Assembly: GCA_039621445.1 (NCBI GenBank)
Contig: CP154954.1
Location: forward strand, 25,246,954-25,310,953
Source of the DNA: Euglena gracilis
Taxonomy: Eukaryota
Length of the DNA stretch: 64,000 bases
Direction: 5' to 3'
Below are positions 8,471 to 64,000 of the stretch, piece by piece. Under the pieces are notes generated by a model. That model was not told where the DNA came from. It saw only the letters and a program-made list of their open reading frames with translations, and did not search any database. Positions within the stretch are counted from its first letter, which is position 1. Each line of letters begins with the position of its first letter. Made by a program: the position numbers and the translations under genes.

Positions 8471-8579
8471 CCCCAATGGGCATCCTCCCCCGATACAATT
8501 TGGATTCCCTCCCCCACAGTTTGCAAACAGTTTTCCTTGGTGAAAAGCTGTTTTGTTGAAGGTCGATCGCTGTTGCGAG

Positions 8580-9028
8580 CAGGCTTATATTTAAGGGATT
8601 GCAGTACCCACCCCCCCGGGGGGGGGCTGGACTGCAGCTAGTCCAAACTTGGCTAGTGGGATTTCTAGCAGACCCCTCCGGGGGGGGGGGGGGTCTGCTA
8701 GCAGGGCTAGCTGGTGGAATTTTTTTTTCCAGTGACTGGCGCGAAGCATCAGAAAAAATTTTGGGACCCCAAAAAATGACCAAAACTGCCCTTTTTTGGC
8801 GATTCTTGGGAAGTTTTGGAACAAAATCAGCCAAAAACCTATTGAAAACCTCATTTCCACCTCGGCACGCAGTGCCGGAGGAAAAATTTTTTTCCAGTGG
8901 GGGGGACCCCCGGACCCCCCTCCCCCCCGGGGGGGGGGAGGGGGGGTCTAGCTAGTCCAATTTTTCCGGTGTCTAGCCGATTGGCTAGCCAGCACCCCCC
9001 CCCCCGGGGGTCTTTAAGCAAAAGCCTG
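8580..9028. mobile_element. hAT-type MITE, family A
   Basis: TIRs CAGGCTTATATTTAAG / TTTAAGCAAAAGCCTG. Perfect 8-bp TSD GTTGCGAG (8572-8579, 9029-9036). Body homologous to 19169-19600. Confidence 0.92.
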
Positions 9029-9178
9029 GTTGCGAGGTTGGTTGCCAAAAGCACAGGCTCGCACTCAAGCCCCCATGTGTGGAAGCAGCTTCATGCTGCC
9101 AGCATTGTTCGGAGCCCCTCCCCCCCCTCAGCATCCCGATGTTCCAGCTCCACCGACCCACTCCGTCAAGCCGCCAAG

Positions 9179-13200: not shown

Positions 13201-13965
13201 CTCCGCCGCCTCCATGCTGCCCTGGCCGAGCGGCTAGCTGAGCTGCTGAGCCGCCGGCCTCGCTGGAGATCCCACGGCTCCTCCTCTGACCACAGCCCGC
13301 CGCGTCTCCGTCACCCCTGCCCGCTACCTCCAGAACGCCAGCTCTCCATCCCAGACCTCCGCCGCCTCGAGGTGGCTCGCCGTGAGGCCCCGCCCCCCCC
13401 ACCAACATCGGCACCCATCCCGCCCCACAGAGAAGCCCGTCGCCTGTGGCTCCGCGCGCGGCTCCTCCGTCTGCTCGCCGAGGACATGGTCGTCTGCCCT
13501 GCGTCCGCCGGATGCAGCGCCTTCCTCGCCATGTTCGAGTCCGTCACAGGCAAACCCTTCACTGCTTCCCCCCCCGTGCCACCGCCCTGGCCCGCGTCCT
13601 CGGCAACCTCATACACGAGGGTGCGGCAGGGCATTTGGTACTACAATCGTGCTCCCTGTGCGGCCCTGGACACCGACGGCTGGCTCTGCTCCGCTCCCGC
13701 CCGGGAGGCTGCGCACCCCGCAACCGCCCTCCACATCTCGATGGGCTCCGTCGACGCCTCCCTCGCTGTCTGGATCCGGGACCACCGATTCCTCCGCCCC
13801 GTCCCCCCAGAACATGACGAGTGCAGCATGGCGCTCCTCCTGCTTTGGGAGACCGACCACGGCCCACCACGGCGACATCAGACCCGGCCAGCCGCCCGTC
13901 GTCCCCTCGCCCCCCCAGCCGGGCGCGGCGCCCCGCCCCTCCTCTGGTGGATCCCCGGCCCCTGA
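10290..13965 (+). pseudogene. ORF2 of the non-LTR element: AP endonuclease, truncated reverse transcriptase, RNase H, CCHC zinc knuckle
   Basis: APE motifs: VLRIGTWNM, LLLGDWNGS, ASRIDLI (10741), GGHSP. RT N-terminal part: AAPDMS...LARLLNLVEQERRWP and DQRPITVLEVVYRAW; no YxDD core found. RNase H: AFTDGS (~12201), SSTHCELAAL, VFTDSLCSL, KVKA, GNDMADSLAK. Zinc knuckle: DPTCPCCGETEKDDRHLLAGC. Multiple frameshifts. Confidence 0.9.
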
Positions 13966-18240: not shown

Positions 18241-19168
18241 GGCTGGCTGACGTAGTCTGTGGTGTGTGATCTAATGAGGCTCCGCGTGTTCTTACCGTTG
18301 GCGGTATATCCAAGTCAGTTCAGCCTGCACTTCAGCACCATTTCCAAGTGTCGTAACAAGGGGTGTGTGCCTCTCTCCTGTTTGATGTACTACAGCACCA
18401 ATCTCACCCTCAGCCCTATTCACGCCATTTGGTAAGCAGCATTTACACCAAACTACTGGGAGTTAATCCCCCTCAATAGAGGAGTGTCACAGTTCATAAT
18501 CTGTTCTCCGCGCGTCAGCGTACAGCGTCCAGGAATTTCGTAATAGCACCCATCCGACCCCCCCCCCCCCGGGGGTTAGGCTTTTGGGGGTGCCTGCCCA
18601 TAGCAGGCACCCCCTCTGACCCTGGTTCCGGGGTGCCGGAAAAGGCCCTGAATGAAAATTTCAATTCAAAGATCGAGTTAAAATTTTCTGGGTCCCCCTG
18701 GACCCCCCCGGGGGGTTTCTGCTAGGGGCAGGCACCCTAAAGCACCCCCCACACAGACATTCGTTTAGTGTGGTACACCAAGGTAGTCTTTTTGGTTCAC
18801 CGTGGACACCAAGATTGTTGGTGGTTCACATATGGACACCAAAAATTTTTTATGGTTCACATGTGACACCAAAAAAAATATTGTGGTTCATATGTGTGCC
18901 GCGGCAAAAACTCAATTGTGTGCCGCGTGCACCGCGGGAAAAAATTTGCGCTGCGGAGCGGTGCACTAAGTGAAAGTCTGAAGTCAATGTTGCGGCTCTA
19001 TGAATGTTTTCCAAAAAAGAAGGATTTGACAGTTCGGAAACGCTTCCATTCATCACGGTGGATGACATAGCACGAATGGCGATTCCCCAAGGAGTTCGGC
19101 GTTTGATAGAGGAGGCCAAAAAATTGATTGGTCCCACATCCTGCACCGTTGTGAGCCGTGTCTGGGAG

Positions 19169-19600
19169 CAGGCTTTTGCTTAAGGGATTGCGGTACCCCC
19201 CAGCGGGGGGGGAGCTGGACTTCAGCTAGTCCAAATTTGGCTAGTGGGATTTCTAGCAGACCCCCCGGGGGGGGTCTGCTAGCAGAGCTAGCTAGTGGAA
19301 TTTTTTTTTCCAGTGACCGGCGCGAAGCAATTTTTTTTATGGACCCCCCAAAATGACCTAAAAAGCCCGATTTTGGCCATTTTTGGAAATTCTTGGAACA
19401 AAATCAGCCAAAAACCTATTAAAAACCTCATTTCCACCCCGGCGCGCAGCGCCAGAGGAAAATTTTTTCTCAGTGGGGGGGACCCCGGACCCCCCCCCCC
19501 CCCGGGGGGGGAAGGGGGGTCCTAGCTAGTCCATTTTTTCCAGTGTCTAGCCGATTGGCTAGCCAGTACCCTCCCCCCGGGGTCCTTAAGCAAAAGCCTG
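19169..19600. mobile_element. hAT-type MITE, family A
   Basis: Perfect 17-bp TIR CAGGCTTTTGCTTAAGG / CCTTAAGCAAAAGCCTG. TSD TCTGGGAG/TCTGGGAC (7/8 match). Confidence 0.92.
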
Positions 19601-22600
19601 TCTGGGACTCCGGTTCGGGCAGGAAATTTCTGCCCGAACCGGCGTCCAGGGCAACAGGGCAGGTGAAACATTTGAATTTCGAAGAAAACAGGGTCGGAAC
19701 GTGCGATCGCCGATTTTCAGAGCGCTGTGCACTGTGGCTTCTGAGTTCTGAGGGTACCAAGCGAAAGGTCTCGAAGAGAGATTTCAATTGATATGCTGTA
19801 TGGTTCCTGAGCTGGGGGAGTTGACAAATTAGTATGTCAAATTTTGGAATACACAATCGCTGAAAATAAGAGTTCTGTGCATTACGGTTGAATTCTGTGG
19901 ACATCTGTCAAAAGCCCTTGACAAGAGCTTTCGATGGATGGGCAACCCCAATGTCCCAAACATGGGAATTTGGGGTGATTACTCAGACGCCGGTTCGGGC
20001 ATGAAGCCAGAGCCCCCTAGAAACGATTTCAAAAACTGTGTCCCAGGCACCGGCTTCACGCCCGAACCGACGTCTGGGACACAGTTCTCAATATGGTAGT
20101 GGTGGATGTTTCTAACCCATGTGAACCTCTCAATTGACCCTCTTACTTCGAGCAGCTTCAAACAAGCAAATCTTTGGGTTTCACAAACATTTCGGGTGCA
20201 GTAGGGCAAGAAAATTACATTTTGAATTTTCTTTCAAATTTCTTCAAATTCAGGTGCTGAGAGACGTATGGTGTACGGCATGGAGTTTTTTTTTTTGAAA
20301 AAAAGTGGTGTGGGGTTGGGCCTGGGAAAAATGCCCCCGGGGTCACGAAGTGAATCTATGGTCGGGGGTCCAAGCCAGCATATATTTTCCAGCATGGACC
20401 CCCCTGGGGGGTCCTCAAGTAAACCCTGCTCGCATCCATTGATGGCAAGGGTTTGCAAAAAACATCTTTTCGGGCAAAATTTTTTTTCGATTTTTTTCGA
20501 CTTTTTTGACCCGGATTTGACCCAAAGTCAATGGGTCGGCGGCCCAAAACGGGGCGCCGGCGGGTCGAAAAACGCTCGTTTTCGGCTCAAAAACTGTTTT
20601 TCTGGGTCCGGGAGGCCAAAAAAACATCGTTTCGGGCCTTCTCCCCCCAAACCCCCAGAGGGCAAACTGCATGGGTTTCTCCTCCTGACCCTCCCTGCAG
20701 AGGCATCCGATGGGCTGCGCCGCCTCATGCACCCACGCCCTCGCCCCTGCAGAAGCCTCCCCTACACCCCCGGGCGGGTCGGGAGGCCCCAAGCGGCTCG
20801 GCCTCCAGGCCAGGCAAATAAAAGAGGGAAGCGACCAGAGACCGGGGAACAGCACCTCAGGGACTCCTGTGCAGGCACCGGGCCGACGCTTGGCGCCGAA
20901 GCGGCTGAGCTGGTTCCGTGTGTTGGTCCAAGGCACCAAGGCGGTGTCTGCCGCCTGTCTTGGCCCCGGTCCCTGGCCGCGCCCCTGGCCGGCAGCAGTA
21001 CGTCGCAGCCCGGCCGCCGCAATCGGGAAGGCACCACAGCCCCTCGTTCGACCGGCTGGAGCTGGTGGAGGTGGAGCCCTCTCCCAGCCAGGCATTGGGG
21101 CAAAAGGTTCAGTCGTTTCCGACGCACCCCGGCCCAGCCACGAAATGGTACACCTTGACCCCTGAGCGGGGAGAGGCGTTGCAGAAATGCCCGCCTGCCA
21201 CAGGAATCCTGGTGAGAGAAATCATATTGTGCGAAATTGCTCAAAGTGCCTTTCCACTCCCTGGCTGCGGGCGTTTTAAGTTTGAGGTTGGTCCAAGTCA
21301 CTGTCCATGTGGAAAAAAGCTTGATACATGAGTCCACAAAGACACACAAAGATTTGTGATACAAATAGGTATTGTTCAACTGGAACCAATTTTGAGGGTG
21401 TAGAAATGAATGTGTGAGCACAGGCAGGGGGTCAGTGCGATGTGGGTTTTTTGTTTTGGTTGCTGCGGATCATGGCCATGAAAGCAATGTTTTCTCTTTT
21501 TGGATGTTGTTTGTCGGTCAGAACTGGTATTGCAAACCATCCCCCCGGCGAGACCGCTTTTGCCATGTGCCGTGCGTACGGAGCCCACGGGTTGCCACCT
21601 CTTGCCTGCCCCATCAACCTCCGCATTTTGTCCGCAGAGGAGGACATGGCCCATTCGCCAGCTGCCCAGCGTAACCCTCTGCTCCGGTTGCGGAGGAACG
21701 CCGTCACCTTCCCCCTCCATGCAGGGCCTAGGCTGCACCGCACCAAGGCATCCAGTGGCCTGCCGTTCGAGTGTGGCAAGGTCGTTGTCGTGGGCTTTGC
21801 TCTTTGGGATATTTGTTTGTGGCTGTGTGTGTGTTTTTGCTTTATTCATTTGCCCCTTTTTTGCTTTTTTTTTGCCTTCTTGTGGAATTTGAAGTACAAA
21901 CAAAATGGTCGAAAATGAAGAAGTATGCAGCATAATGCTGTGTTTGCAACTTTCCCCATTCCCCATGCAGCACTCCTGGTCGTGAAATTATCAAATCATA
22001 TCGAGGAAAAAGGGAAGAAAGTATTTAGAATTGAATGTGGTGCAATGCTGTTAAATGTTGTCCAAAGTGGCTGCTGTCGCTTTTAGCAGGGGGAGGGCAA
22101 CAAGGGGTTCAAATATGTGTTTTTTCCCCTGAAAAAACAGCGATGCAATTTATCCAAAAGGGTGATATCAACTTCAAACTGTCTGGGAATCCCGGTAGGT
22201 GGGCAAACTTTCTGCACTATTTTTTATTATTAAAAAATTCACTCTTTTTTCCGACATTGGGAGGGGAAAGTATGCAAAAAATGAAAATGCTTAAAATCAT
22301 TATATAAATGAAAATTACGCAATAACACAAATTAAAAGAAAAAACCTCAGCAGGAAAGTTCATAAGAATGGTGGAATGCGTTGAGAAAGTGGTTCCATGG
22401 AGGAGATATGGCATATTTTTTTTAATTGTGTAATTTGGAGCTCCTGACCTTAGTTGAGATTTTTCAGTTTTTTTTTGTGTGATATGTGTCATACCCAAAA
22501 GTGTCCATGCACTTCTCCATCCCACATTCCTATTAGCAGAGGAAGAAGAAAACTAAATTCACCAGTTTACAAAAATCCGACGACAGCTCAGGGTCGAGAC

Positions 22601-23328: not shown

Positions 23329-24909
23329 GCTACAGTCTAGCAACGGTTGCGGAAAACCATTTTTCGCGTCGGGTTCCCGCCTTTCCCGGGGGCCGCGAGG
23401 GCACCCCTCAGCAATGGCGTGCCCCATCCCGGCCCTCCCCCCGCGGCCCGCCCGGGAACGCCGCCTGCCGCCGCTGCCGCCGCCGCCGCTCACGTGCCCT
23501 CTGCATCTGAGGGTGCCTCTGCCACGCGTCGGTCCCGACAACGGCGGCCAGCCTGTTTAGGCATCGAAGAGTTTGGGTTGGGGTCTGGGCAACCCCAACC
23601 AGGCTTCGTTTGACAGTGCCGGCTTCTCTGTTGACTCAGAAGACCCCACAGGGTGGGCTGAGCCTACCCCTCCCAGAGGAGGGGGTTCGGCTCTGGCTGG
23701 CTGGGGGTTTGGGTGGACAGCTTTGGTATACCACGCCGTAAGTTTCGGGGAAATGGCCAAAACTGATGGGGAATGGGGGTTTGGAGGCCTTTTTTCCCCC
23801 GAGGCCAGGAATTGGGGTTGGGGTTTGAGGGCTTTCAGTTTGATGGCAGACCACCCCCTTCCTGAGCTCCTCGCTGTGCTGGGTGGGCGGAGCCACCTTA
23901 AAAAACAATCACGCATTCATTGCTCTTCGGGCCCCTGTGGGACTGCAGGCCAGCTGAGAGGGTCCAGAGGTGTGCCAGAGGCGTGGGACACTCCCCCGCC
24001 CAACGGGTAATATTGGATCCCAGCCAGATTCGGCCCAGGCAAACCTCTTTTGAACCTCTATTTTCTGGCCCTGGCACCTTTGACACTTCAACGGAGTGCT
24101 CTAGCTCTAGCTCTGGCACTACCCTCTCCAGCCCTTGACCCTCCCCGCTGGGGGGGGGTAAAGAGTTAAAAAAATGCCGATCTGGACTACGCACACAGTG
24201 CAGCCTAAACTTACAGTTGGGGATACAGGTGGATATTATTGTATAATCAGAAAAAGAGGGAAAAGCAACCTTTCATTGAGAAGAATGGAATGATGGGTAA
24301 TGATGGTGATTATCCTAATTTTAACAAAGATGCCTTCAGCAAAAATACCAACTCTAAAATTAAAATGGCCAGAATGGTCTTCTGGAGTCTGGTGGTCTTT
24401 TGTTGCGATAAAGAGTGCCCCAAACGTTCGTTTCATAAACTTTATGTCAAATTTGCGTGCACGTGAGAATGGCGACCCAATGTTTATGGGAATCGTAAAA
24501 TGGACAAAAGATGAAGGGGAAAATGATGGGGAAATCGAGGTTCCCACAAAATTTTTGTCTCTTGTGATGTTCGTCCAGATTGTACGGAGAATATGCACCA
24601 AAAATGAGGGACAGGAAACGTTTTTTTCCCCTTCAGAGAAAAAGGAAAACAGGGTGTTGTCTTGTGTTTGAAACTGATTTTGGGCGTGTGGCTTCTTTCT
24701 CTGCAGGCTTTTGATTGCTCTCATGGGCTAACGTGTCGGCTTTTTCCAGGTGCCTGACGGTTGAAAGAAAACCCGATGCACAGGCGTTTGTCTGCCATCG
24801 CCCTGTTGGGTTGGGGAAAACGCAAAGGGTGCATGAAACGGGCGTGCATGGCGGATTTGTTTGAGCTGAATAAAATGTTTTTTAACTCCACCGCATTTTG
24901 TGTCACCAT

Positions 24910-25282
24910 CAGGGAATTTCTTAAGCCGGAGGGTACCCTACCCCCGGGAGGGGGTCCAGCCAGCCAGCAGCTCAAATCCAGCCAGCAGCCCAAATTCGGG
25001 CTGGGAGCCCCCCCCCCCCAGGGGGGGGTCGACTGAAATAAAGTCGGGTCCAGCCCGGCCGGAGGCCGGGCCAGCCGGCCGAAGGCCGGGCCTGCCGGCC
25101 GCAGGCTGGCCAGCCAACTGGGCTGCCCAGCTCACCTATCCCTGCATTTTTTCCCCTCACCACAGTTTCCTCCATCACAGCCCCCAGCCTTGATCTAGCT
25201 CCATCCACCAAAATGTCGAAAATGGCAAAAATGTGGTAGAAATTTTTGTTTTTCACCTGGGGGGTCCTTAAGAAATTCCCTG
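24910..25282. mobile_element. hAT-type MITE
   Basis: Perfect 16-bp TIR CAGGGAATTTCTTAAG / CTTAAGAAATTCCCTG. Perfect TSD GTCACCAT (24902-24909, 25283-25290). Confidence 0.93.
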
Positions 25283-28200
25283 GTCACCATTATTGTTTGA
25301 ATGGACCATCCCGTTATGTTGGATCAAAATTGCCCCTCACCCTGAACTCCTCCCTTTTTGTGCTTCAACCGTCCTCCTGCCTGCGAACGTGTCCCCCAAA
25401 CGTCGCCCCCGACGCTCCTGCTCAAACTCGTCTCAGGGCGGATCCTTGTGAGGAGATAAAAATTCCTGGCAAGACATTCAAATCCTTGCATCACTTATCT
25501 CAAGCACACCTTCATTTAACCTCGCCTTCCCTTCTGGGGAGTCAACCCCCCAAAAAGTGATACCCCTTACACACCACCTCTAGTGAACGAAACGGAAAGA
25601 TGAGTGGCAATAACTCGAAGAAACTGATTCACAAACTTGTTTTCTGACCAAGAGCAAGGTTATCCAAGAGCAAGGTTATATTGTGAACCTTGAACCATCT
25701 CGGCTTCTCGAAGAATCACAAACTTCTCCAAAACCTTGAAACCTCGAAAAATCTGGAGGGGGTTCCAAAGTGGGCTTAAAATGCAATGAAGCCTTAAATG
25801 GTTTAGGGGGAGGTTAAGGTTGGTCAATTTTTTGCCAATCCTGGCCACCTTTGGCCAATCTGGTAATTGTTGACCATTTTTTCGGCAATTTGTGGTGATT
25901 TTGGTATTTTTGCAATCATTGGCCATTTTTGCAACTTTTTCCGCCGCCTTTGGTCGCTTCGGCTATTTTTCTTTTGGACAAAACCTTGACAAATCTCGAG
26001 GGGGGGTCAAGCATCTCGACTACCTTGGACCCCCTCCCCCAAAGTCAAGATCAAGATCCAACTGAACCAAACGAAATGCCATTCTGAAATAAAAACTTTT
26101 CAATAACCTTGCCTGGGGGTTGCTTTGCAATTAGCCAACAAATTCTTTCATTTAAATACCCCCATTTACAAACCGTGCCTTCGGCCAGCCCAACATCAGT
26201 TTGTACGGAAGCCGGGGGGACTTCTAAGTGGTTTGGAGGTTCAGCTTCAGCAGTCGATCACTCACTTCATGGCGAAGGGCAACCTTATTGAAACCTGGTT
26301 GGCTGACGAGGGTGCTTGGTCACTAAATTCAGACCCCTTCGGTGAGTGCCTCGCCGCACCTCCACTATTCACGTCGTGCACCGTGCAGAAGGCTTGCTTC
26401 CTGGCCTCAAACCGCATTCCTTGCCCCCCCCACCTGCACTGTTTGGGTGAGGAGAGGCCTGTGGCCGGTCTCTCCCCACCCAGGGCTGTCCGCGAGGTCG
26501 ACCACCCCCACCCCATCATGACTGGGGGTTCATCCCCCTCCACCGGACCTTCCCATATTTCGGGGGGCGACTTTTTGGTCAAACTTCTCGTGTTGTGGCT
26601 GGGGGTGGGTCGACGCCCCCACCTACAGCCCTGCTCCACCCTACAACCGACATCTTTCTCTCCTTCCCCCCTCTATCGGCCATCCATTATGGTGTGCAGC
26701 GTTTTGACGGAATGGGAAGCGTTCTGTATCGCCCTTCTATTTTGGAGTGCAGTATGAATCATCTTGCTCATTTTCTTGGGCACAAAAGGGAGAGTCCCCA
26801 AATAAAGAAAAGAAACCCACTTTTCACACATTCCCATCCCTGCAAAGGGGGGGGGGGTAGTGGTTAAATTAGTGCATGTAAACTGACACAAACGAGAACG
26901 TAATGCAAAAGGGGTCAGCATTTTGTGAGTGCTTATTTTTTTTGCAGAGCAAGATAGATTGTGCTTCTGGAGAATTGGGGTTGAACCTAAAACTTTGCTC
27001 CTATTTCTTCATTTTAAGTTTCGAACTTTTTCAGTATTTTCAGAAACACTCCATGTTTTATGGACACAGATTTTTTAACGTGGGTTTATATTTGAGTTCA
27101 TCCCACCGACAACCTTGTGTGGTATACAGATACAGGCTAAAAATGATTCTCAAAGAGATTGCGTCTTTTGGGGAATGATAACATGTACAACGACAAATTG
27201 TTTTATTCGTTTGCCCTGTATTCCTTTTCATTGGTCCACGCCCAAGGAGGGCTTTCCAATGGCCCTTGGGCTGTCGGTAAAATAGGGACATTTGAAAAAA
27301 AATCACAACAAAGACTGAGAAGTCATGCTGGCCACATTGCAACCAGAACCCCTCTGTCCTTGTGAGTGTGGCGAGCAACCACTTGATTATTTGTGATCTG
27401 CAACTGCCATGTGTGTGTGATGGCTGTTTCCCTGGCCATTCATCTGTAGGTTCGTAGACTGTGGACAGTGTCCGTGTCCTTCAATGGCGCGTCCCTTTGG
27501 ATTGGCTCAAAAGAGGCGTTGAAACTCTGCGATGGGGGAAAATTTTGGGAAAATTTTGGTGGCTTCCCAAAAATTGTGTTTCCGCAATTTTTTTCTGGGC
27601 TGTACGTTCAATTTTGGATTTGTCTTGTTTTGCAAAAAAAAATCACAAAAAGACACCCAGAAGGAGACCAATTTTGAAAATTTGTCGCAATTCTTTTAGG
27701 TGCCATTTTTGCAAAAAATTCCATCACAAGTGGGAAAAATCATTACCATTTTCAATCAAACCTGAATTTCCCAATCATCAATTTTCCAAAATGAATAGTT
27801 TCCCATCATTTTTCCCCGTCATTTTTTCTGTCATTTTGTTCCCGTCATTTTTGTCCAGATTGGAAAACTTTTGCCCTTTTTTGCGCTGTTGTGCAAACGG
27901 AGTGACACATTTTGTGTTTCAATCGTTGAGGAGAAAGAGTGAGATTTGCCCTCTTGTTCAGGGGTTTGGGTGGGGTGGTCCCAGCTGAATTTTAAGTGAC
28001 CTCAGGGACATGCCCAAACCTCCTTTTTCCCCCTGATGGCCAGGTTTTGTCGATGCCAGAAATCATGTTTTGTATCCCGGGCATAACTGAAAACACGTGG
28101 AAGACCCGAAAAGGGGGTTTATTGACAAGTGTCCAGACAACTGTTTTTGCGGCAGTGGACCCCTCGTAGTTTTCCCCAAAACTTGTGAAAAAAACAGGCT

Positions 28201-45173: not shown

Positions 45174-45576
45174 CAGGGTTTGATATAAGGAGGGCGTACA
45201 TGGTTTAGGTGGGGGGGTGTCCTCCCCACCCCTCCCCCCTTCCTGGCCCGCAGGAGGGGGTCCGGACCACCCCCGCCCACCTGCCAGGGGGGTCCAGACC
45301 GACCCTCGGGGGGGTTCCCGGGACCCCCCCCCCAAAAGGGTCAATTTTTTCCTCCAGCGCTTTGCGCCGAAATTTTTTTTTGCATTTTTGGCACATTTTT
45401 GCCCAAAAAGTGCCCAAAATGGCACTTTTGGTCGTTCTGGGGGGTCAAAAATTTTCGGCCACCCTGACCGCGCACCTGTTTAGGTGGGGGGGTGTCCCCC
45501 CCCCCCCCCCCCCCCCCTGGCCCGCAGGGGGGGGGGGGTCCGGCCCCCCCCCCACCTGTCCTTATATCGAACCCTG
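45174..45576. mobile_element. hAT-type MITE, present in copy 3 only
   Basis: TIR CAGGGTTTGATATAAGG / CCTTATATCGAACCCTG. Perfect TSD CCCCTGAC. Empty sites at ~30847 and ~37989. Confidence 0.95.
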
Positions 45577-46772
45577 CCCCTGACCTGGTATTTTACTGGG
45601 GGCAATTGGGAATGACCAATCGAGGAATGGAAATGTTGGCAGAATGAACTTCCGCCAAACATGTTTCTACCACTTTGGCCAAGGTTGCCAGGTTTTGCAT
45701 ATTTTTTTGAGAATTTCTAGAAAATAACCAATGTTTTCTATTGAAAAAAAATTGGCAGAACACAATTTGCTATTTTGGCCGAGACCAAGGAAGTTGTTCA
45801 TCTCAAAATTTTTATCCAATTTCCTTTGGCATCAGCCCCCCCCCCCCCTGTACAGTGCACTGATTTGTCGGAGCAGTTTCCCACAGGGGTTATGATTTAT
45901 GATAAATTTGTCCACACAAAAGAACAGACGTTGAAAGGTATTTTATGGCAAAGTCTCCGCAAATACCAAGGCGTAGAAAGATTTGTCCGGCACATTTCTG
46001 TGTCATCTCTTTTTCCAGCAGACAAATTCCCACATGTATGATAAATCCAGTGTACTCTGTTGTTGCAGTGTTCCCCTTTCTGTGATGCAGTTTTCCTCCC
46101 AATATTTGGTTTTTTTTTCTTTTCGATTTGTGTTATCAGTTTTTAAGCTGCAGGGGACCCCACCAGGCTTTTGCTTAAGGGATTGCAGTACCCCCCCCTG
46201 CCCTTATACCAAAGCCTACCCCCAACAACCCCCGGAGTCCAGCCAACACTTTTGTCCAGCCGGCCGGCCGGAGCTGGCCCCCAGGCCCGGGTATGGGTTT
46301 CAGCACGAAGCACTGGACTACTTTGGGAAATGCTTTCCGACAGCCCAATTGTTGGGAGTGTCCCGGGGTGGTCCCACGCCAGGCTGGGTGAGGCAGGAGA
46401 CCACCGGGTCTTTTAAAAAAAGAAAAGGTCTGGCCCACGGGTTGGGGGGGTGGGGGTTGGGGAGGTTGGACCCCCCAGTCCAGCTGGGAAGGATTACTTT
46501 GGGACCGCACCACGCTCTCCAGCCCTCCTCCCGGACCAATCCAACCACAGGCACTGCCGCCATATACCTTTGAAGACCCCCACCCCCCCTCTGCCGATAC
46601 GAGTCCCCAGATTGACTTATCTGCACTCATCACCTTCCCAGCGCCCCTGCCTCTCGCAGCAACGGTTCCTGCTTACATGACTGCCGTTGCTGCCCATGGA
46701 GAAGTAACAACCTGAAGAGACTGATTAACCAGCACTCATCACTTGTTTTCTCACCAAAAGCAAGGTCATATT

Positions 46773-53832: not shown

Positions 53833-53842
53833 GGGCCAGAAT

Positions 53843-54266
53843 CAGGCTTTTTCTAAAGCCTTTCAATCCCAGAGGGGGGGGGGACGCTAGCTATTTTGGC
53901 GAGTGGGAATTATACTGGACCACTTTGGGGGCTTCTGCTGGCAGGGCAAGCTAATGAATTTTTCTCCAGTATTTTTTTCCATTGGCCGGTGCGAAGTGCC
54001 GAGTTTTTTGAGACCCCCTAAAGCTGGTGAAAAATGCCATTGTTTGCCATTTTCGTGTTTTTTTGGAACAAAATCAGCCAAAAAATGTATTGAAAACCTT
54101 ATTTTTTACCTCGGCGTGCAGCAGCGGAAGAAATTTTTTTCCTGTTGGGGGGACCCCAGCCCCCCCTCCCCCAGGGGGAGGGGGATCCAGCTAGTCCATT
54201 TTTTCCAGTGTCTAGCAAAATGGCTGGCCACTGGACCCCCCCATGTGGTCCTTAAGCAGTTGCCTG
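53843..54266. mobile_element. hAT-type MITE, diverged family A
   Basis: CAGGCTTTTTCTAAAG...CCTTAAGCAGTTGCCTG. TSD GCCAGAAT/GCCAGAAA. Body shares GGAACAAAATCAGCCAAAAA with 8580 and 19169. The empty site GGCCGGAATGC is at ~30542. Confidence 0.85.
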
Positions 54267-55887
54267 GCCAGAAAGAAATGCTTCAATTGGGTGATCACAG
54301 TTTGACAAGATTGCAATGTATGCCCCACAGCATCAACGCCCTTAACTCAACGAAAGGAAAATGCATCCGGTGAACAACAGGCCCAAATGTGTGCTTTGCA
54401 GACGAGTTCAGAGGTATATTGCTCCGAAAAGCCTCTGTTTATAAGAGTACCATTTACGGTACAGACTGTGACTCCTTGCAAGCTGGTCAATGCTGGTTAT
54501 TAGCAAGGAACGTAAGAGCAACAAAAGTGACTGAAAATCGACATTGATCAAACTTTTTCCCTCTGACCCGGACCTAGCGTGGAAACTGTTCTCTACCCTC
54601 TGTACCCCCGACATGATACCTTTATGGGGGCAATTGGCAATAGCCAGTCGAGGAATGGGCCTGCCTGGCGTGGGACCACCCCGGGACACTCCCAACAATT
54701 GGGCTGTCGGAAAGCATTTCCCAAAGTAGTCCAGTGCTTCGTGCTGAAACCCATACCCGGTCCTGGGGGCCAGCTCCGGCCGGCCGGCTGGACAAAGGTG
54801 TTGGTTGGGGTTGGAGGCAGGCTTTAGTAAGGGCGGGGGGGGGGGGTTGGACCGCTGGTCCAGCAGGGTAGGGGGGTCCCCACCTTAAGAGTGACACGGG
54901 CTAGGTGACCGATTTTCAGCCTGGCGCAAAGTGCTGGGCCGAAAAAATTTCCAAAACGGCCATGAGTGCCAATTTGGGGACTTTTTGAGCAAAAATTTAT
55001 CAAAACATGCAAAAAATCAATCTGGATATTGCATAGCAGAAATGGCCAAAAAGACCAAGAATGGCCCAAGTTTTTCTGACATGATCCCTGTTGACTGTGG
55101 CCAAAACTGGCCCAAAATGGATGAAATCAATGGCAATGAGGCTCAAAATTGCCTGAAATGACTAAAATGGCCTGGCACCTGAAAAATAACACGTTTTCCG
55201 CAATTCTATCACATTGCTTCGCATATTTGATACACATTTCAGCGCTTATTTTGAATTTTGCTGTCAAGGCACAAAGTGTGGTTTTCTTAAGGACCTGGGG
55301 GGGTCCCGCCAGAAAACCAATGGCACCACCAGACGCCGGGTTTTCGGACAGAACCGGCGTCCGGAAAACCCGTGGGGGGGACGCCGGTTCTGTCCTGAAC
55401 CTGGCTTCCCAGACGCCGGTTTAATCGACAAAAATGGATGGAAAGCGCCCAAAATTGTTAACATTTAAGCCAAAAATGGCAAAACCTGGCGAACAATGCC
55501 AAAAAGATGTTGATGATGCCCCATTCATTCAAAAATGATGGCTCACCTCGTGGCTCATGGAAAAAATTATGGCTTAAAGGCCCCCAGGGGGAGGGGGGTT
55601 CAGGCTGAAAAAACCCCTGCAAACCTGCCCCCGTCCCCGAATAGGGTGATTTGCACCCCAAAAGAAGAAGGATCCAGGGGCATCCGTGCCATAGCTCCCG
55701 GCCAGCCTGCGGACCCACCCCCTGGATCCACTGGTAAAAGTTTGGACTTGCACAAAGCCAAAAGTCCCCAGCTATTTGCGCCGTAATTTCAATTGCTTTT
55801 TTGCTGACACTGTCAGAATCAATGCAATTGAAATCCCCGTTGGTTACCCTATTTTTTTCTACGGATGAAAATTGACTAGTTTTCATA

Positions 55888-56298: not shown

Positions 56299-56776
56299 TA
56301 ATTTTTTTCTTAATTTCCGGGGAAAAAGCACAAAAATAACGAACAAAGAGGAACAAATTCCAAATTTTACCAAAACCGAAAGTCGCCAAAACAAAAAAAC
56401 GCATTTGCGTCCCCAGCTGCTTTGTGGCAGGGGTTAGCCGGGGTCAGCCGGAGGGGAGGGGTTACGGGGTCCAGGGGTTGGGTTTCCAACAAAAATGGAT
56501 CGGATCCTCGTTGGACTTTGTTTAATTGTTGGATGGGGTTGGGGGGGGTGGTAAAAAATGCCCCAAAAAGCCAAATACAGCTGGCTTGGCATTTTTCAGC
56601 AGATATTATGAGGCAAAATCCCCAAAACCTTCCAAAAATGACATTTTTTGGCCTTTTTTGACCCCTTTTCCCCAAAATTTTTGGCTTTTTTGTGCCGAAT
56701 TTTTTTCAGCTACCTAGTCCAGCTAGCACCTTTTTCCAGCAGGCGGCTGGTCCCCGCCCCCCCCCCCCCCCCCGAT

Positions 56777-56964
56777 CAAGCACCTCTGATGATGCTGGGC
56801 GATGCTGGGCGATGCTGGGCGATGCTGGGCGATGCTGGGCGATGCTGGGCGATGCTGGGCGATGCTGGAGTTTTTGAGACCAGAGGTGGGGTTCCGATGC
56901 TGGGCGATGCTGGGCGATGCAGGGCGATGCTGGGCCTAGGGGCATGGATGACCAGAGGTGCTTG
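56777..56964. mobile_element. Mini DNA transposon with an 8-bp TSD, composed mostly of (GATGCTGGGC)n
   Basis: TIR CAAGCACCTCTG / CAGAGGTGCTTG. Perfect TSD CCCCCGAT (56769-56776, 56965-56972). Confidence 0.88.
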
Positions 56965-59521
56965 CCCCCGATGGGTGCCTGCGTGGGTGTCCCCTCCGAA
57001 CTCTCACTCCAGAGGCATCCAATGGGCTGCGCCGCCTCGTGCCCCAGCACCCTTGCCCGTGCGGAGGCCCCCCCTGCCACCCTGGGGGCTGGCCCCCCGG
57101 CCAAGCGAAGCAAAGCGGGAGACGACCAGGGACCGGAGAACAGCGCCTTGAGCGAGCTGGGGCGGGCGCCGGGCGGCCGCTGGGAGACATATGGGCCGTG
57201 CTTGGGGCTGCGTTTTGGTCTCCTTTGGGGAACGGCGGGGGCCGTTCTCGCCCGCCCCCGCGCCCTCCGCCGGCCTCGGCCCCGGTCCCTGGCCACAGCG
57301 CCATGGACCTCGCTCCCTGCCGGCCGCGGTGCGCCGCAGCCCCGCCGCAGCAAGCGATGAGGCACCGCAGCCCCGGCGCCGCATCGTTCGACCGGCTGGG
57401 GCAGGTGGGCACGGAGCCCTCTCCCAGCCAGGCCTCAGGTGGCCAGCGGGCAAAAGGCTCGGTCGCCTCCAACAGACTTTGGCTCAGCCGCCGATGATCC
57501 CAGGGAATTAGCTGAGTGTTGGTTTTTTAGAGTGGGGATTAGACCACCCAGGCCTGGAGGAGGAGGGGTCCAGAACCCCTCCCAGAACCAAAAAGTATTT
57601 CCGGCACTTTGCGCCGGGGAAGGTAATATTTTTGGTTTGTGTTTTAGCCATTTTTTTTCAAAAAAACGCGATTTTGGGCTTTTTTTCAGCCCAAAAATGG
57701 CGCTTTTTGCTTGAATTTTTTTTGTAGAGGGACTAGGGGGCTCCAGACCCCCCCACTCCCCGCTCATTAAATACCCTGATGGCCCGTGAGTGAGGAAAAG
57801 CGTCTCAAATGGATGACTGACACATGACTTTTGTGAGAAGAAGCACATTGTACAAAATTGATCAAAATGCTTTTCCACTTCTCAGGAAAGGGAGTGAACC
57901 CCTAGCCACAAGTCTGCTGCAGTCACAGCCTATGTGGAAGAACCCAGACACATGGGCCTACAAATGAACACCGTCCAAATAGAACCAACTTCGAGGGAGG
58001 TGCAGAAATGAACGGGCCATCACAGGCAGGGGTTTGGTTGTTTTTTTTAAAACCTTCTGTGTAACCTCCCAGGCTTTTTGGACTTTTTTGTTGTTTATTT
58101 CATTTTCCCAATTATTTTATTTCGTAATTATTTTGAAAAATCGTTCTGGGGAGAGTATTAACACGTGCGCACATATGGAGCCCGTGGTGGCCGCCTCTCG
58201 CCTGTCCCATCCACCTCCGCCGGTTATTTGCAGAGGAGATTATCTGTCCCCCGGACGTCCAGGGTCACCCTCCGCGAAAGGAGCGGCGGAACGCCGTCAC
58301 CTTTGACCTCCCGGCGGAGCCCGGGCTCCACCGCGCCAAGGGGTTCCGCGACCTCCCGTTCGCCTTTGCCAGGGTGGCGGTCGTGGGCTCTGCTGTTTGG
58401 GACCATTTGTTTGTGACTTTGCACGGCTGTTTTTTTTTGCTTTTTTTGCAGTCCTTTTTTTGGAAAGCCTTGCTTTCATATTTGAAGGCGTGTCAGAACG
58501 TAATGTTGTGTTTGCGATTTTCCCCATACAGACTTCAGGTCATTAAATGATCAGATTCGTTCTAAAATCATACTGGAGAGTAAAAGGAAAGGGAAATTAA
58601 ATTGGTGCAATGCTGTTCAGTGTTGTCAAAATGACTGAAATAGGCGGGTGTTGAAGTTTTTTTTATAATATGTATTCCTACACAGTTTGAATTTTTCATA
58701 CTTTCATAATGAATTGAAAATTTTTCCAGCTGTTTGCATTTTTCCCTCCCAGTTAAATGAATTTTTTTTGGATAATTCACAGATTTGCCTGCTAACTTTT
58801 TTTTGGTTCCACTGGATAAATGCTTTTCATTATGCAACGTTCTTCATCATGCAGCACCATCAATGTTTTGAATAATCGTTCACATTTTCTTTCAAAAATA
58901 ATAACAGAGAGAAACCTGCTTCATCATGCAACAACAATAATGAAAAAATTGCACAAAAAGTGGAGATTTCAATTTCAATTGTTTGGGAATCCCAGTTGGA
59001 GGGACGTTTACACTGCGGGGAGTTCGTAACAGAACTAGCACGAGGCTTGATTGTTTTGCCCTCCTTTCGTTTGTTTTCCTTCTTTGACCCCAGCATACTT
59101 GCAGTGCCTTGTTGCACCACCCCCCCGCTGAGAGCAATCAAAAACACGGAATATGACGGGAAAGTCGCTGCGTGGAATTTCTTTGCTCCCACATCTATGT
59201 CTCACTCCTGCACACCGCATATGCTGCCTTTGCTGCATCTCGACCCAGGGCTGCAACCTTGTGACTGGGTTGTGCTGGGAAAGGGCGATGCCGGGACGCC
59301 CCAGCAGAGGCCACCCCCCTCCGCTGCGGTGCACGTCCCTGAGAAGTGGGCCGACCCCCGACCGCTGTCCTGCGCTACCCACAGTGTCCCGGTTCATGCC
59401 GTTGCCACAACGTTGTTTCGTGTCAGGTTTTTTTCCCCGGGGCCCAACAGCAAGATATTCAGTTGAGTTTTGTACAGAGGGAGGAGGGTCCAGACCACCC
59501 CCTGTTCCCCTGCCTTCGGAC

Positions 59522-61036
59522 CAGGCACCTATAGCTAAAATGGCCTAAAATGGCCTAAAATGGCCTAAAATGACCCTTTGACCCCCTATAGGTGGGGGTC
59601 CCTAAAATGGCCTAAAATGGCCTAAAATGGCCTAAAATGGGAAAAATTCTGTTACACAACAATTTTTTTTTGTGAACAACTGACGTCATTTGGGTAATCA
59701 CTTTCGGTGTCTTTTGTTACAGCCGGTTGTGGAATATGTATGAAAATCAAAATAACTGCCAACTTTCTCAATTGTAATTGGTCAATTATCTCTAAAACAA
59801 TTGCCAATTTTCTCCAAACAATTGTCAGTTTTCTCAAAACAATTTGCCAATTTTCTGAAAGCAATTGCCGTTTTTCTCAAGAATGAATGCCCTCGTGACA
59901 GTTGTGTTTGCAAGACAAGTTTCTGTTTCATAAGCGTCTCTTTCTCTTGCATCCACGTCTGATCCGAATAACGCTCGTCATGGGTACAATGTGTTGGCCG
60001 GGAGTTTGCCTAAAATGTGGGCCTGTCGGATGATCAATGGACACTTCTTTTTTTCTGATTATGAGACAACTGGCAATTGCTTTTGAGAAGATTGCAGTCA
60101 TACTTTGAGACAGTGGCAAAATTTTTGAGACAGGTGGCAATTCATTGTGAGTATCAGTATCACTCCCCATGGTCCCCAACGTTCTTTTGGTATTTGAATT
60201 TTGAAGGTTTGGACAGCTTGATTTTCTTCTTACTCCCATCTTTTTTGGTGCGCAACGATGTCTGTTTTGCAAAAAATGAACAGTGCAAATGTGGAAGTAT
60301 GGGGAAAAGACAGGGAAAGAAAGACGAAAGATGTTGGAAAAATCTCAGTTGAAAGATGTGCATGCTTATTTGTTTTGTTACGTACCAGGGATTCCTTCAA
60401 ATCACGATCCAGCACAATTTTGGGGAAACCACAAATAATCACGCCGAGTGATGAAGTGACCCAAACAACCACAAACAATTATGAATGAGATTCTCTCCTG
60501 TTTATGAACCTTTTAGTATAAGTTTCCCCAAAGGAGAAAACAAACACGGAGAAGAAGAATTGCTCTAAGCTCTCACATTGAATTTCACCATGCAACAGCA
60601 TCATCTTTCAGAAAAATGGCTTCTTTTTGCGAAATCCTGCAAAATGGCGTATATTTCACAAAATACAAAGATTTGGGCGCTTTTCTTGGTTGCGCAAATA
60701 TAAACTTTTAATATTTGTCAAACGTTTTTTTTTTAAAAATTTTCACTGCCATAATTTCTTACTGTTCAGAATTCCTCTATGGGTATGAATTAAGATTTGT
60801 TGATTGTGGTTGTGATACATTGTTTATGAATTTTGCATGCTTTTTTGTATGTACATTTTCTTATTACTGAATAAGAGAAGGTTTGCACACGTTATGATAC
60901 AGTTTTTGGGACAAAAATGACGAAACATTATGATTTTCAGAACCCCTTAAAATGGCCTAAAATGGCCTTAAATGGCCTGAAACGACCTAAAATGGCCTAA
61001 TATTATGAAATTTTTAGGCTTGACTATAGGTGCCTG
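59522..61036. mobile_element. hAT-type non-autonomous transposon, 1.5 kb
   Basis: Perfect 13-bp TIR CAGGCACCTATAG / CTATAGGTGCCTG. Perfect TSD CTTCGGAC. (AAAATGGCCT)n subterminal repeats at both ends. Confidence 0.93.
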
Positions 61037-64000
61037 CTTCGGACCAAGAGTTGGGGTCCCCCCACTAGAACCAAAAAAGCGCCGGAGAAGATGAAATTTT
61101 TGGTGTCTGTTTTGGCTGATTTATTTCAAAAAAAAAGTCTGCAAAACCACGATTTTGGGGCATTTTTTTTCAAGGAAAAAAATAATTTACGTTGCTTTGC
61201 ACCAGATTCTTCTTTTGCACAGGAGAAGTGGGGTCCGGATTCCCCCCCTCCCCGCTCATTTGATACCCTGCCCAAAGGTGTCCGTGACTGACCGGCTGCC
61301 TCATTGGGACGTCGCCCACTTGGGAGTGGTCCGCGCCGGCATGCCCCACCCCAGCCTTCCCACCGCGACCCTCCCGGGCTGCCCCCGACCGCCACGCACC
61401 GCCTCCGCCTCAAACCTGTCTGGTCTGGATCTGAGTGCGCCTCCGCCGCCGGTCAGCTCCCTGGCCCGCGAGGCGGCCCCCGACCCCTCGTTGAGGGTGA
61501 CTCCGCTTGCCGCCTCCTGGCCCAGCACCCCCAGTGACAGAGCCCAACCATTGTGGTCAGCCTGTTTGAGCATCGAAGAGTTTAAGCTGGAGATCGGGGC
61601 ACCCCCAACCAAGCTTCTTCACAAGGAAGACCGCACTCTTGCCAGCCTCCTTTTTTTTTTTGACTTGGAAGATCCTCAGGGGGTGGGAGTGGGGTGGGAG
61701 CCTGCCCCTCCCAGAGGAGGGGGCCCTGTTCAGGGGGCTTGGGTGGAAAAATTCTGATGCAAGGCGGTGTAAATTTGTGAACTCCGTATTCAAAAGGTGG
61801 GAATGGCCGAAATTCATGTGAAATTGTTTTAAAGTTTTTTTTTGATCCTGGGACCAGAAGTTAATTTTGAGGGCATTTTGGCTGATTTTTTTTTCCTGTG
61901 AACTCCCTGCGCTGGGTGGATGGAGGTCCCCCGGGGTCAAAAGCATCCTTTTTTGGGCACGCATGGGGGCAGCTCTTTTAACCCTCCCCAGAATGTCGGG
62001 CCAGATATCCAAGCCCTTGCATCATTTATCTCAAGCACGCATTCATTGAACAGTTTAACCTCGAATGAACCCCTCTCCCGAGCTTGTTCAAGAGTTGGGG
62101 AGGCAGGCCGTGTCAAGGCGCAATCCGGCCAGGTCTTTATTGTGTTATTCAAATGCTTGTTCAATTTTGTGGGTGGGTGGGTGGGTGGGTGGGGCGAGTG
62201 GGCCCACCACCCCCAACTGGGAGGACGGGGAACCTCTTACTTGTAACCCCTCTTCAAGTCGACAAACCAGAGGTGATACCTCTTCATACCCCAACCCTGG
62301 TGATGCAAAATGAAAGGTTAGTGGCATAAAACCTAAACTGGTTTTCGCATTTCTTTTTCTGCCAAAATTTGTGAAGGATGGAATTTTTTGACGCAGGTTT
62401 TTAACGTGTGATTCAATATTTGATTTAAATTAGATTTGTGATTTGATTTAAAATTATTGTGTTCAGTTTACTGGCCATCATGGCTGTAGGCAACCTTGAC
62501 CCTCATTGTTCCATCTGGGACACTGGGTTAAACCTGAGGCAGAGCGACACTTTTTGTCCGTTGTCTTCAATTTCAACTCCCTGCCTTCCACCCCACCAGC
62601 ACCACCCCCCCAACCGCTGGGTAGGCAGCCGCCCCAAACATTATCTACACACTGACATAAACCCAGTACCAGCTTATACCACTCCTCGCAGCAGCGGTTG
62701 CTGCCCCCCACACGACGTCCTGTCTGTGGTCGGGGGCAGGGGCCCTGCACCCGCATATGGGTGACCTGCTCGTCCCTCGTATTCATTCAGTAATGCCCCA
62801 TGCTGTGGTGTGTCCTCACATGGCCAACTTCCAGTGAACTGGAGATGGTCGACCGAGGACAGTATGGAGGCAAATACATTTAATTGCTTTTTTTTGTGTT
62901 TTTTTATTTTGACAAGATTTGTTTCTTGCTCGTTTGTGTGTGTGTTTTCCTGGTGGTTTTTTCTTTTTTGTGAGGAAGTTTTTTCGACTCGGATAAAATT
63001 CACATTTTGGGCCTAATTTTTCCGTGAGACCAACCACCGTTTTTTGAAGTTGCTTTTTTTTAAAAAAAAATGCAATTTTTCAGAATCAGCATATTCCCAA
63101 AACCTATTCAAAATACACAACAAAATATTTTGGCACATCATGTATATGCAACCATATGCATAATGTTGCATATGGTTGCAAATTTTTCCTGGAGAAGGCT
63201 GACAATCTTCTCTGCAGCAGAGAACCGGGAGCTCCTGGAGGAAGTTGCATGGAAACTCGCGGTTTTTTGCGTTTTTCAGGGTCCATTTTGTGTTTTCCCT
63301 CCCCCGCGTTCCTTGGGCAGTCTTTACTCGGTGTGGGGTCAATGGAGCCACGGGATGGGCCATGTGTCGCGTGTGTGACAGCGCACATGAGCACCAGCCC
63401 AAGGGAAATTGATTCCCAATGATTCCAAGGAAGGCGCGCGTGCAGTGCAAAACTGTGTCATGAACAGCTGGCTGGCTGGCTTGCCAATCCATGGTGGCGC
63501 AAAGGGAGAGCGTGGCACAGGGAAGGGAGGGGTGGGCGTCCAATCCGCCAGGCTATCGCTTAAGGGTTTTCAGCACCCCCCCCCCCCCCAGGGGGGAGAT
63601 GGAATGCCGCTGGTAGCTCATAGCAGCCGGAAGAATCCCCCCCCCGGGTCATTTCTTGCGAATGGGAGAAGGGTGAGCTTGGCTGCCCGCTCCTGCCGGC
63701 GCCGGGTGATCCACATCGGGGGAGGGCTGCGTCGTGGGGGCTGGGGGATCGGGTTCCGGCTCGGGGACGCTGCTGCTGGCGCCCCTGCTGTCCTGTACAG
63801 GGGTGGGGGGCATTGGTTTGGGACCTTGGGACCACACCACGCTCCCCTCCTCCCTGACCGATGCCCCCATCCAACTGCTCCGTATGGCTCCGAAGACGCT
63901 CTACTCCATCCGCCGACACGAGTCACTTCAGCTTGGGCCCATCTCACCACACTGATCACCTTTTCCCTCCACCGCCCCCCCATAAGCGCCTCACAGCAAC

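Follow-up and report, generated by a model that had tools for sequence, protein, structure and literature searches.

The window, that is, the whole stretch of 64,000 nucleotides of Euglena gracilis DNA that was analysed, probably holds six non-autonomous cut-and-paste transposons of four families, whose anatomy is the one required by the code of euglenid nonconventional introns and which are a possible source of such introns (we give this reading a probability of roughly 0.7).

The six elements and their target duplications

All six elements start with CAGG and end with CCTG, and each is flanked by an 8-bp target-site duplication (TSD), which is perfect in four of them and carries one mismatch in e2 and e5. 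The elements are listed below without assignment to a strand.

8580-9028 (8572..9036 with TSDs), unstranded: e1, family A MITE of 449 bp; perfect TSD GTTGCGAG on both flanks; TIR matched at 13/16 positions
19169-19600 (19161..19608 with TSDs), unstranded: e2, family A MITE of 432 bp; TSD TCTGGGAG/TCTGGGAC, 1 mismatch; perfect 17-bp TIR
24910-25282 (24902..25290 with TSDs), unstranded: e3, family B MITE of 373 bp; perfect TSD GTCACCAT on both flanks; perfect 16-bp TIR
45174-45576 (45166..45584 with TSDs), unstranded: e4, family C MITE of 403 bp; perfect TSD CCCCTGAC on both flanks; TIR matched at 17/18 positions
53843-54266 (53835..54274 with TSDs), unstranded: e5, decayed family A copy of 424 bp; TSD GCCAGAAT/GCCAGAAA; TIR matched at 10/16 positions
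59522-61036 (59514..61044 with TSDs), unstranded: e6, family D element of 1515 bp; perfect TSD CTTCGGAC on both flanks; perfect 13-bp TIR; subterminal 10-nt repeats CTAAAATGGC at either end

The coordinates, the CAGG and CCTG ends and the 8-bp TSDs given in the earlier note were recovered, but its TIR length of 13-17 bp was found only in e2, e3, e4 and e6, the perfectly matched stretch being limited to 7 and 5 bases in e1 and e5, respectively. What it had called several families proved to be four, e1, e2 and e5 forming family A while e3, e4 and e6 stand for families B, C and D. Within family A, e1 and e2 are 85% alike and e5 is 72-73% alike to them; internal-deletion variants of family D are present in the DNA contigs of run X1.

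Comparison of the TSDs by column (n=6) showed a pyrimidine at positions 2 and 3 (6/6 each), a purine at position 6 (5/6) and an adenine at position 7 (6/6), the last having a chance probability of 0.23^6, or about 1.5e-4, by our own arithmetic from the base composition of the window. The resulting consensus, nYYnnRAn, looks like a palindromic target preference. A Y|R step at TSD positions 5|6 on at least one strand had been reported for five of the six elements, and this list is correct as written, but with a chance of 0.44 per element the p-value is about 0.06 and the enrichment is therefore not significant. The relevant signal is not Y|R but the purine at TSD position 6 together with the pyrimidine at position 3, within nYYnnRAn.

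Element e4 is inserted in the third unit of a 7.15-kb tandem array, and the other two units listed here hold the corresponding site without the element.

30848..30855, unstranded: empty paralogous counterpart, in array unit 1, of the e4 insertion site; 8-mer GCACTGAC present once, without the element
37990..37997, unstranded: empty paralogous counterpart, in array unit 2, of the e4 insertion site; 8-mer GCGCTGAC present once, without the element

A unit-specific variant of this 8-mer is found in both flanking copies at e4. Since the 8-mer is single at both empty sites and the variant is shared by both flanks, the repeat at e4 is a target duplication made by a staggered cut and not sequence carried in with the element.

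One further candidate, e7, and one further element, c8, were recorded with 8-bp TSDs.

33427..33604, unstranded: e7, candidate element of 162 bp, CAGGGCTGT..ACAGCCCTG; TSD CCCCACCC/CTCCACCC, of low complexity, 1 mismatch
56777-56964 (56769..56972 with TSDs), unstranded: c8, 8-bp-TSD element of 188 bp; 12-bp TIR CAAGCACCTCTG; perfect TSD CCCCCGAT

Copies of e7 lie at 40585-40747 and 48176-48337, with a shortened one at 26481-26633, so that its insertion predates the amplification of the array. Element c8 has internal CGATGCTGGG repeats and its ends are CAA..TTG, not CAG..CTG; 8-bp-TSD elements in the window thus need not carry CAG/CTG.

Chance, direction of copying and transposon class

A scan of the window that was blind to the terminal bases returned eight pairs of TIRs flanked by an exact 8-bp TSD, four of them CAG-starting; e2 and e5 fall outside this count because of the mismatch in their TSDs. 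In forty dinucleotide shuffles, such pairs averaged 0.2, with a maximum of 1. The terminal template CAGG-N6-YTTAAG, common to families A and B, occurs 10 times in the window for 0.85 expected, and the family A TIR 12 times for 0.66 expected. Solo termini of family A were recorded as well.

46164..46198, + strand: solo family A left terminus, 33/33 aligned bases at 97% to e2
22784-22799, - strand: solo family A terminus
23055-23070, + strand: solo family A terminus
31760, + strand: solo family A terminus
38911, + strand: solo family A terminus
63549, + strand: solo family A terminus

A search for a partner end or a TSD of these six solo family A termini found none, and a full-text literature search for four TIR strings found no paper.

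The coincidence of matching ends and matching flanks could in principle arise by chance in sequence as repeat-rich and GC-patchy as this, since short TIR-like pairs number 10,487 in the window and several of the 8-bp matches taken as TSDs are artefacts of palindromes or low complexity; yet CAG-starting pairs numbered 0 in the 40 shuffles against four observed, related full-length copies exist and e4 has its empty sites, which makes this explanation extremely improbable. For e1-e4 and e6 the present data refute it; e5 and e7 would be weak on their own. It is very unlikely, too, that the direction is reversed and that the free-standing copies derive from excised intron RNA, for example as reverse-transcribed and reinserted circles, instead of from DNA transposition. 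Excised nonconventional introns are indeed reported as full-length circles (PMC11282704), but the 8-mer flanking e4 is the target's own sequence, found once at each empty paralogous site. As non-autonomous DNA transposons, MITEs with one element of 1.5 kb beside them, the six are best read as hAT-like; no transposase was found in the window, so the superfamily is read only from the length of the TSDs, the termini and the pattern of the target. Like the hAT elements Hermes and Ac/Ds, they have 8-bp TSDs, short TIRs starting with CAG and, in e6, short subterminal repeats. Hermes makes its 8-bp TSDs at 5'-nTnnnnAn-3' (PMC10368747), a pattern that the pyrimidine at position 2 and the adenine at position 7 of our TSDs resemble in part, a thymine being present at position 2 in only 3/6 (n=6). 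They differ in that the window yielded neither a hAT transposase (BED finger, DDE core, hAT dimerisation domain) nor an autonomous element with the same termini. Membership of another superfamily with 8-bp TSDs (Merlin, P, Mutator-like or others) is unlikely. E. gracilis is reported to have two Merlin families whose DDE motifs are intact and whose TSDs are of 8 bp (PMC8101967), and no transposase is linked to our MITEs; however, all Merlin families start with 5'-GG (PMC8101967), whereas the TIRs of the six elements start with CAGG, at a boundary that the TSD fixes before the C, and the pyrimidine at position 2 and adenine at position 7 would fit the nTnnnnAn of hAT (PMC10368747).

Anatomy of the elements and the nonconventional splicing code

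The published code of nonconventional splicing is 5'-N3CDG..CH'GN5-6|R, with genetically defined spacers that are strictly 3 nt before CAG and optimally 5 nt after CTG (PMC12501133). These spacers, of 3 and 5 nt, add up to one 8-nt copy of the TSD, as the earlier note had pointed out in agreement with the published values, and excision at TSD position 5|6 would thus restore the target. The CAG/CTG motif of the code is present in 6/6 elements and the purine in 11/12 element/strand cases, the exception being the + strand of e3. In the predicted MFE folds, both strands of four elements (e1, e2, e4 and e6) have the terminal CAG paired with CTG. In e3 this holds for the + strand, and the outermost pair of the - strand is shifted out of register by 3 nt; the terminal stem of e5 is absent on both strands.

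The likeness extends to the introns themselves, which have CAG(G)/(C)CTG ends (PMC4770533). Cut at TSD position 5|6, the elements would carry CAG at +4..+6, CTG at -8..-6 and G/C at +7/-9; like the introns, they have pairing ends and a purine at the head of the downstream flank, and they fall within the size range. The exon downstream of nonconventional introns begins with a purine in 55/55 cases, followed by an adenine in 43/55 and a cytosine in 30/55 (PMC4770533); its bases 1-3 correspond to TSD positions 6-8. The nYYnnRAn consensus of the window matches the published consensus on the exon side. The youngest published intron, the recently gained nonconventional intron 4 of E. agilis gapC (GTCCC|aac-cat..atg-gtccc|AACTC; 2016 supplement, Table S3, PMC4770533), has the same layout of element plus 8-nt repeat as the six elements, with GTCCCAAC repeated at 8/8 positions on the two sides of an inverted-repeat core and split 5|3, a repeat that its authors read as double-strand-break repair (PMC4770533). 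Unlike nonconventional introns, the six elements lie outside any recognisable gene and no removal from RNA was seen among the joints listed for e4-e6; by observation, therefore, they are not introns.

Two other comparisons were made. The start of E. agilis hsp90 intron 5, which resembles the family A template by eye, gave 0 ungapped matches in the window at up to 3 mismatches, and the likeness is treated as unsupported. Flank matches for tubB introns 9 and 15, counted by hand in published junction tables, averaged about 3.2/8 over 12 rows, a value judged uninformative because these rows are homologous and share a common consensus.

Transcription of the window and the proposed origin of nonconventional introns

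Pfam searches of all 299 ORFs of at least 90 aa in the window gave 0 families, and hence no transposase, hAT domain or gene, while those on 16 long ORFs gave a single sub-threshold match, to DUF3701 (E 0.0045, 17.6 bits against a cut-off of 26.9). Rfam and tRNA scans of the window found nothing, and the best protein-atlas score for a 432-aa ORF, 0.80, was uninformative. No RNA run was listed as containing 52000-61999. Positions 44001-64000, which contain e4, e5 and e6, were covered with a sample of about 5% of the raw reads of each of two RNA runs, with one contig run of doubtful RNA origin ('RNA?') and with one DNA contig run. RNA depth on this segment was about 0-1.5, with peaks only at poly-C/G and no RNA specific to the locus, and 96-97% of the placed reads fitted only in part (2298/2338 in X21 and 1184/1215 in X22). 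Among the 15 joints listed of the 534 on 44001-64000, none skipped e4, e5 or e6 and none measured 411, 432 or 1523 nt, the length of an element plus one TSD copy. The copies in the window sit in gene-poor, repeat-rich and practically untranscribed DNA, with a GC-rich block at 9-14 kb, and no instance of splicing comes from this window. The proposal of a candidate intron-generating system thus stands as regards the insertions with 8-bp TSDs and their code geometry, but finds no counterpart here in a gene, in RNA, which is near zero, or in a listed joint across e4-e6.

The elements would have been inserted by a transposase encoded elsewhere, making an 8-bp staggered cut and most likely of the hAT superfamily, and the copies in the window would be inert in their practically untranscribed surroundings. 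Their anatomy presents to the splicing code a paired CAG:CTG stem with three TSD bases before CAG and five after CTG, and the two strands mirror each other, TSD position 6 being a purine on one where position 3 is a pyrimidine on the other. A copy inserted in an exon would then be spliced out whichever its orientation, taking exactly one copy of the TSD with it and restoring the message, and such elements would be a source of nonconventional introns. We put at slightly better than even the chances of the full proposal, namely that hAT-like CAGG..CCTG MITEs are the living source from which euglenid nonconventional introns arise, that the machinery, counting from the TIR stem, measures exactly one 8-bp TSD (3 + 5 nt), that the exon consensus Y|R-A-C is the fossil of the transposase's palindromic target preference nYYnnRAn, and that this preference makes every insertion spliceable in both orientations.

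The elements might instead be ordinary MITEs whose match to the intron geometry is coincidental, the introns arising otherwise, for example by double-strand-break repair. Elsewhere, CAG-type ends together with 8-bp TSDs are seen in many hAT elements, which counts for such a coincidence, as does the fact that no copy was seen spliced among the listed joints (e4-e6); break repair is, moreover, what the authors of the gapC study preferred for its 8-nt repeat (PMC4770533). Against this stands the convergence of four independent features, which are the CAGG/CCTG ends, the sum of 3 and 5 to 8, the R-A at TSD positions 6-7 facing the exon R (55/55) and A (43/55), and the 8/8 gapC repeat abutting an inverted-repeat core, and we consider a coincidence improbable.

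The hypothesis that nonconventional introns originate from MITEs is itself not new, having been in print since 2014 (PMC3935182, PMC11282704 and PMC12501133). In the parts of the literature on these introns that were consulted, we found no named transposon family and no explanation of the geometry, and our literature search found no paper linking an 8-bp TSD to the 3 + 5 spacers. Introner elements of Micromonas, Fritillaria and Amoebophrya are likewise described, in an excerpt of PMC11282704, as MITE-like, with TIRs and TSDs, their ends and TSD supplying the excision signals. They are removed by the spliceosome and have short TSDs, of 3 nt in Micromonas and 3-5 nt in Amoebophrya (same excerpt), whereas here removal is proposed to be by the nonconventional machinery, at 3 and 5 nt from the stem.

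The question addressed is where euglenid nonconventional introns come from and why their spacers follow a 3-nt/5-nt rule. To this the window contributes the free-standing side only: elements whose ends and TSD length are right, whose TSD consensus mirrors that of the exons, and which make the MITE-origin hypothesis directly testable.

Bounds, families and chance expectation of the elements

We delimited the six CAGG..CCTG elements (e1-e6) of the earlier note by reading its coordinates and searching for matching ends. All six were present and bounded as described, with a CAGG start, a CCTG end and flanking 8-mers in each case.

Elements, further candidates and e4 empty sites in the window
e1, 8580-9028, 449 bp, flanking 8-mers GTTGCGAG / GTTGCGAG
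e2, 19169-19600, 432 bp, flanking 8-mers TCTGGGAG / TCTGGGAC
e3, 24910-25282, 373 bp, flanking 8-mers GTCACCAT / GTCACCAT
e4, 45174-45576, 403 bp, flanking 8-mers CCCCTGAC / CCCCTGAC
e5, 53843-54266, 424 bp, flanking 8-mers GCCAGAAT / GCCAGAAA
e6, 59522-61036, 1515 bp, flanking 8-mers CTTCGGAC / CTTCGGAC
e7, 162 bp, CAGGG..CCCTG ends, low-complexity TSD with 1 mismatch
c8, 56777-56964, 188 bp, 12-bp TIR CAAGCACCTCTG, perfect 8-bp TSD CCCCCGAT, from the end-blind scan
e4 empty site in unit 1, 30848-30855, single 8-mer GCACTGAC
e4 empty site in unit 2, 37990-37997, single 8-mer GCGCTGAC

The ungapped terminal inverted repeats (TIRs) were 17 for e2, 16 for e3, 17/18 for e4 and 13 for e6, so the claimed length of 13-17 bp held for these four elements but not for e1 and e5, which had only 7 perfect bases (13/16) and 5 perfect bases (10/16), respectively. 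Subterminal repeats of 10 nt were located at both ends of e6, and C-run/G-run palindromes (e.g. CCCCCCCGGGGGGG) were observed inside families A-C, at 8610-9010, 19190-19560 and 45250-45560.

Comparison of the elements with the window by blastn defined four families: family A, consisting of e1 and e2 (85%) with e5 at 72-73%, and families B (e3), C (e4) and D (e6), with one copy each within the window. The family-A end CAGGCTTTTGCTTAAG occurred 12 times at ≤3 mismatches (0.66 expected), a count that takes in six solo termini for which neither a partner end nor a target site duplication (TSD) was found in the window, while the template CAGG-N6-YTTAAG, common to families A and B, occurred at 10 sites (0.85 expected). 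Two family-A-like termini of the same variant, CAGGCTTCTTTTTAAG, face apart at 22784-23070 with 255 bp between them; no partner or TSD of either was identifiable. Internal-deletion variants of e6 were seen in the DNA contig run, and the summed DNA-contig depth at the e6 ends, which is not a copy number, exceeded that of unique stretches by orders of magnitude; the e6 family fits a high-copy one.

An end-blind scan (6-nt seed, 13-nt TIRs with ≤3 mismatches, 80-3000 bp length) returned 10,487 TIR-like pairs in the window, only 8 of which had an exact 8-bp flanking repeat; these comprised e1, e3, e4, e6 and c8, together with three artefacts of palindromes or low-complexity sequence. In 40 shuffles that preserved dinucleotides, such exact pairs averaged 0.2 (largest 1), and none started with CAG. 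As elements with TIRs and 8-bp TSDs, e1, e3, e4 and e6 are beyond chance. The candidate c8, whose interior holds tandem repeats of CGATGCTGGG, has the 8-bp TSD in common with e1-e6, whereas its ends are without CAG/CTG.

Insertion of e4 and transposon class

A tandem array with a unit of ~7.15 kb occupies ~25.2-48.5 kb (25200-48500) and comprises three full units and one partial, mostly 95-100% alike. The candidate e7 is present in all four units and is therefore older than the amplification of the array. The insertion of e4, in the third unit, is among the differences between units: units 1 and 2 are without e4 and have a single 8-mer at the site, the 60 nt to its left being 98% identical between units. 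Since the empty sites carry the 8-mer once and the unit-specific variant CCCCTGAC is found on both sides of e4, insertion duplicated the target. This target-derived duplication argues against e4 being an excised intron that reinserted and brought its own eight bases.

Alignment of the six TSDs (positions x1..x8) showed a pyrimidine at positions 2 and 3 in 6/6, a purine at position 6 in 5/6 and an adenine at position 7 in 6/6, the last with a probability of 0.23^6, ~1.5e-4 (~0.005 after 32 tests). Hermes is reported to use 8-bp TSDs at 5'-nTnnnnAn-3' (PMC10368747). The 8-bp TSD and the short TIRs starting with CAG are hAT-like, and TSD length, termini and target pattern suggest that e1-e6 are non-autonomous hAT-type elements, an assignment that is provisional because no transposase was found in the window. 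Merlin elements reported in E. gracilis have 8-bp TSDs and TIRs starting with GG (PMC8101967), whereas e1-e6 all start with CAGG.

Intron code and published introns

The earlier note proposed that the element geometry fits excision, at TSD position 5|6, of nonconventional introns (euglenid introns without GT-AG, with CAG near the 5' end and CTG near the 3' end). Their code has been genetically defined as 5'-N3CDG..CH'GN5-6|R, with a 5' spacer of strictly 3 nt and an optimal 3' spacer of 5 nt (PMC12501133). Cuts placed 3 nt upstream of CAG and 5 nt downstream of CTG would remove the core and eight bases and leave one x1..x8; the 3 + 5 = 8 arithmetic of the proposal was right. The exon-start purine was present in 5/6 elements on the + strand (x6; e3 fails) and in 6/6 on the - strand (complement of x3), that is 11/12 over both strands (P(≥11) 0.003 at even odds). 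The Y|R count of 5/6 at 5|6 given previously was correct, but is weak as evidence (p ~0.06). The terminal CAG:CTG pair formed in the MFE folds of both strands of e1, e2, e4 and e6 and of the + strand of e3, while the outermost pair of the e3 - strand was 3 nt out of register and the pairing failed on both strands of e5.

Published nonconventional introns show CAG(G)/(C)CTG, with G/C at +7/-9 in 31/55; the downstream exon has a purine first in 55/55, A second in 43/55 and C third in 30/55, and the upstream exon ends in a pyrimidine in 49/55 (PMC4770533). With x5 as the upstream exon end and x6, x7 and x8 as downstream exon positions 1-3, the R-A of these introns is also found at x6-x7 of the free-standing elements of the window. 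In E. agilis ACOI 323, a gapC intron of recent gain is accompanied by direct repeats of eight nucleotides, which the authors attribute to break repair (PMC4770533). In its sequence, GTCCC|aaccattaccttg...caaggtatggtccc|AACTC, two copies of the 8-mer GTCCCAAC, split 5|3, enclose the inverted-repeat core CAT..ATG (PMC4770533 supplement). It is an author-verified intron with the layout that the earlier note proposed. Intron 5 of hsp90, strain WA, starts agt-CAGGGTTCGCTTAAGGG (PMC4770533 supplement), which by eye resembles the template CAGG-N6-YTTAAGGG with one base fewer; this start had no ungapped window match at ≤3 mismatches, and the resemblance may be due to chance.

Surroundings, RNA and the intron interpretation

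No Pfam family at E ≤0.001 was found in the 299 stop-to-stop ORFs of at least 90 aa of the window, nor any Rfam family or tRNA in the window. A C-rich block (9029-14062, 64-71% GC) with e1 at its left edge has long ORFs in one frame and a few stops; it gave no Pfam family beyond a sub-threshold DUF3701 match, and the protein atlas gave no lead. At 16400-18200 and 857-1299 lie a dense inverted-repeat field on GCAAATGCGC-like motifs and a 133-nt inverted repeat whose arms are 94% complementary.

Fourteen DNA-type runs, all from one organism, contain at least half of the sampled words of 52000-61999, and no RNA run was listed as containing this region. Reads of two RNA raw-read runs (X21 and X22, ~5% of each), one 'RNA?' contig run (X16) and one DNA contig run (X1) were mapped to 44001-64000. 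RNA depth was ~0-1.5 on both strands save two poly-C/G spots, and 2298/2338 (X21) and 1184/1215 (X22) mapped reads fitted only partially. None of the 15 joints listed, out of 534 in 44001-64000, skipped any of e4, e5 and e6. As these loci are practically silent, their RNA offers no basis for judging splicing. RNA reads stacked as low-complexity matches at two places, the e4-internal C-run/G-run (45495-45518) and a C-run resembling it (56752-56774). At 48593-53396, one 415-nt X16 contig lacks 4421 nt, with 53225 connected directly to 48803; X1 DNA contigs read across both junctions. On the - strand, the missing stretch is bounded by imperfect inverted ends, AAGGTGGGCTTGAG / CTCAAACCCACTGG; it fits neither GT-AG nor N3CAG..CTGN5 and may represent an unusual intron, a variant or an artefact of assembly.

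The intron interpretation of e1-e6 is partly supported: geometry, code compliance, target consensus and published data agree with an intron-generating system, but no gene was found in the window, and the RNA reads on 44001-64000 show neither transcription nor splicing of e4-e6. A MITE origin of these introns is already in print (PMC3935182), also in the discussion of PMC12501133 and in a review that adds TSD-like repeats at the junctions (PMC11282704). Neither an 8-bp TSD equal to the 3 + 5 spacers nor a named hAT-like family was found in a literature search confined to papers readable without subscription, bioRxiv supplements not included. What is new is modest: four concrete free-standing families, their assignment as hAT-like, and the agreement of the TSD consensus with that on the exon side.
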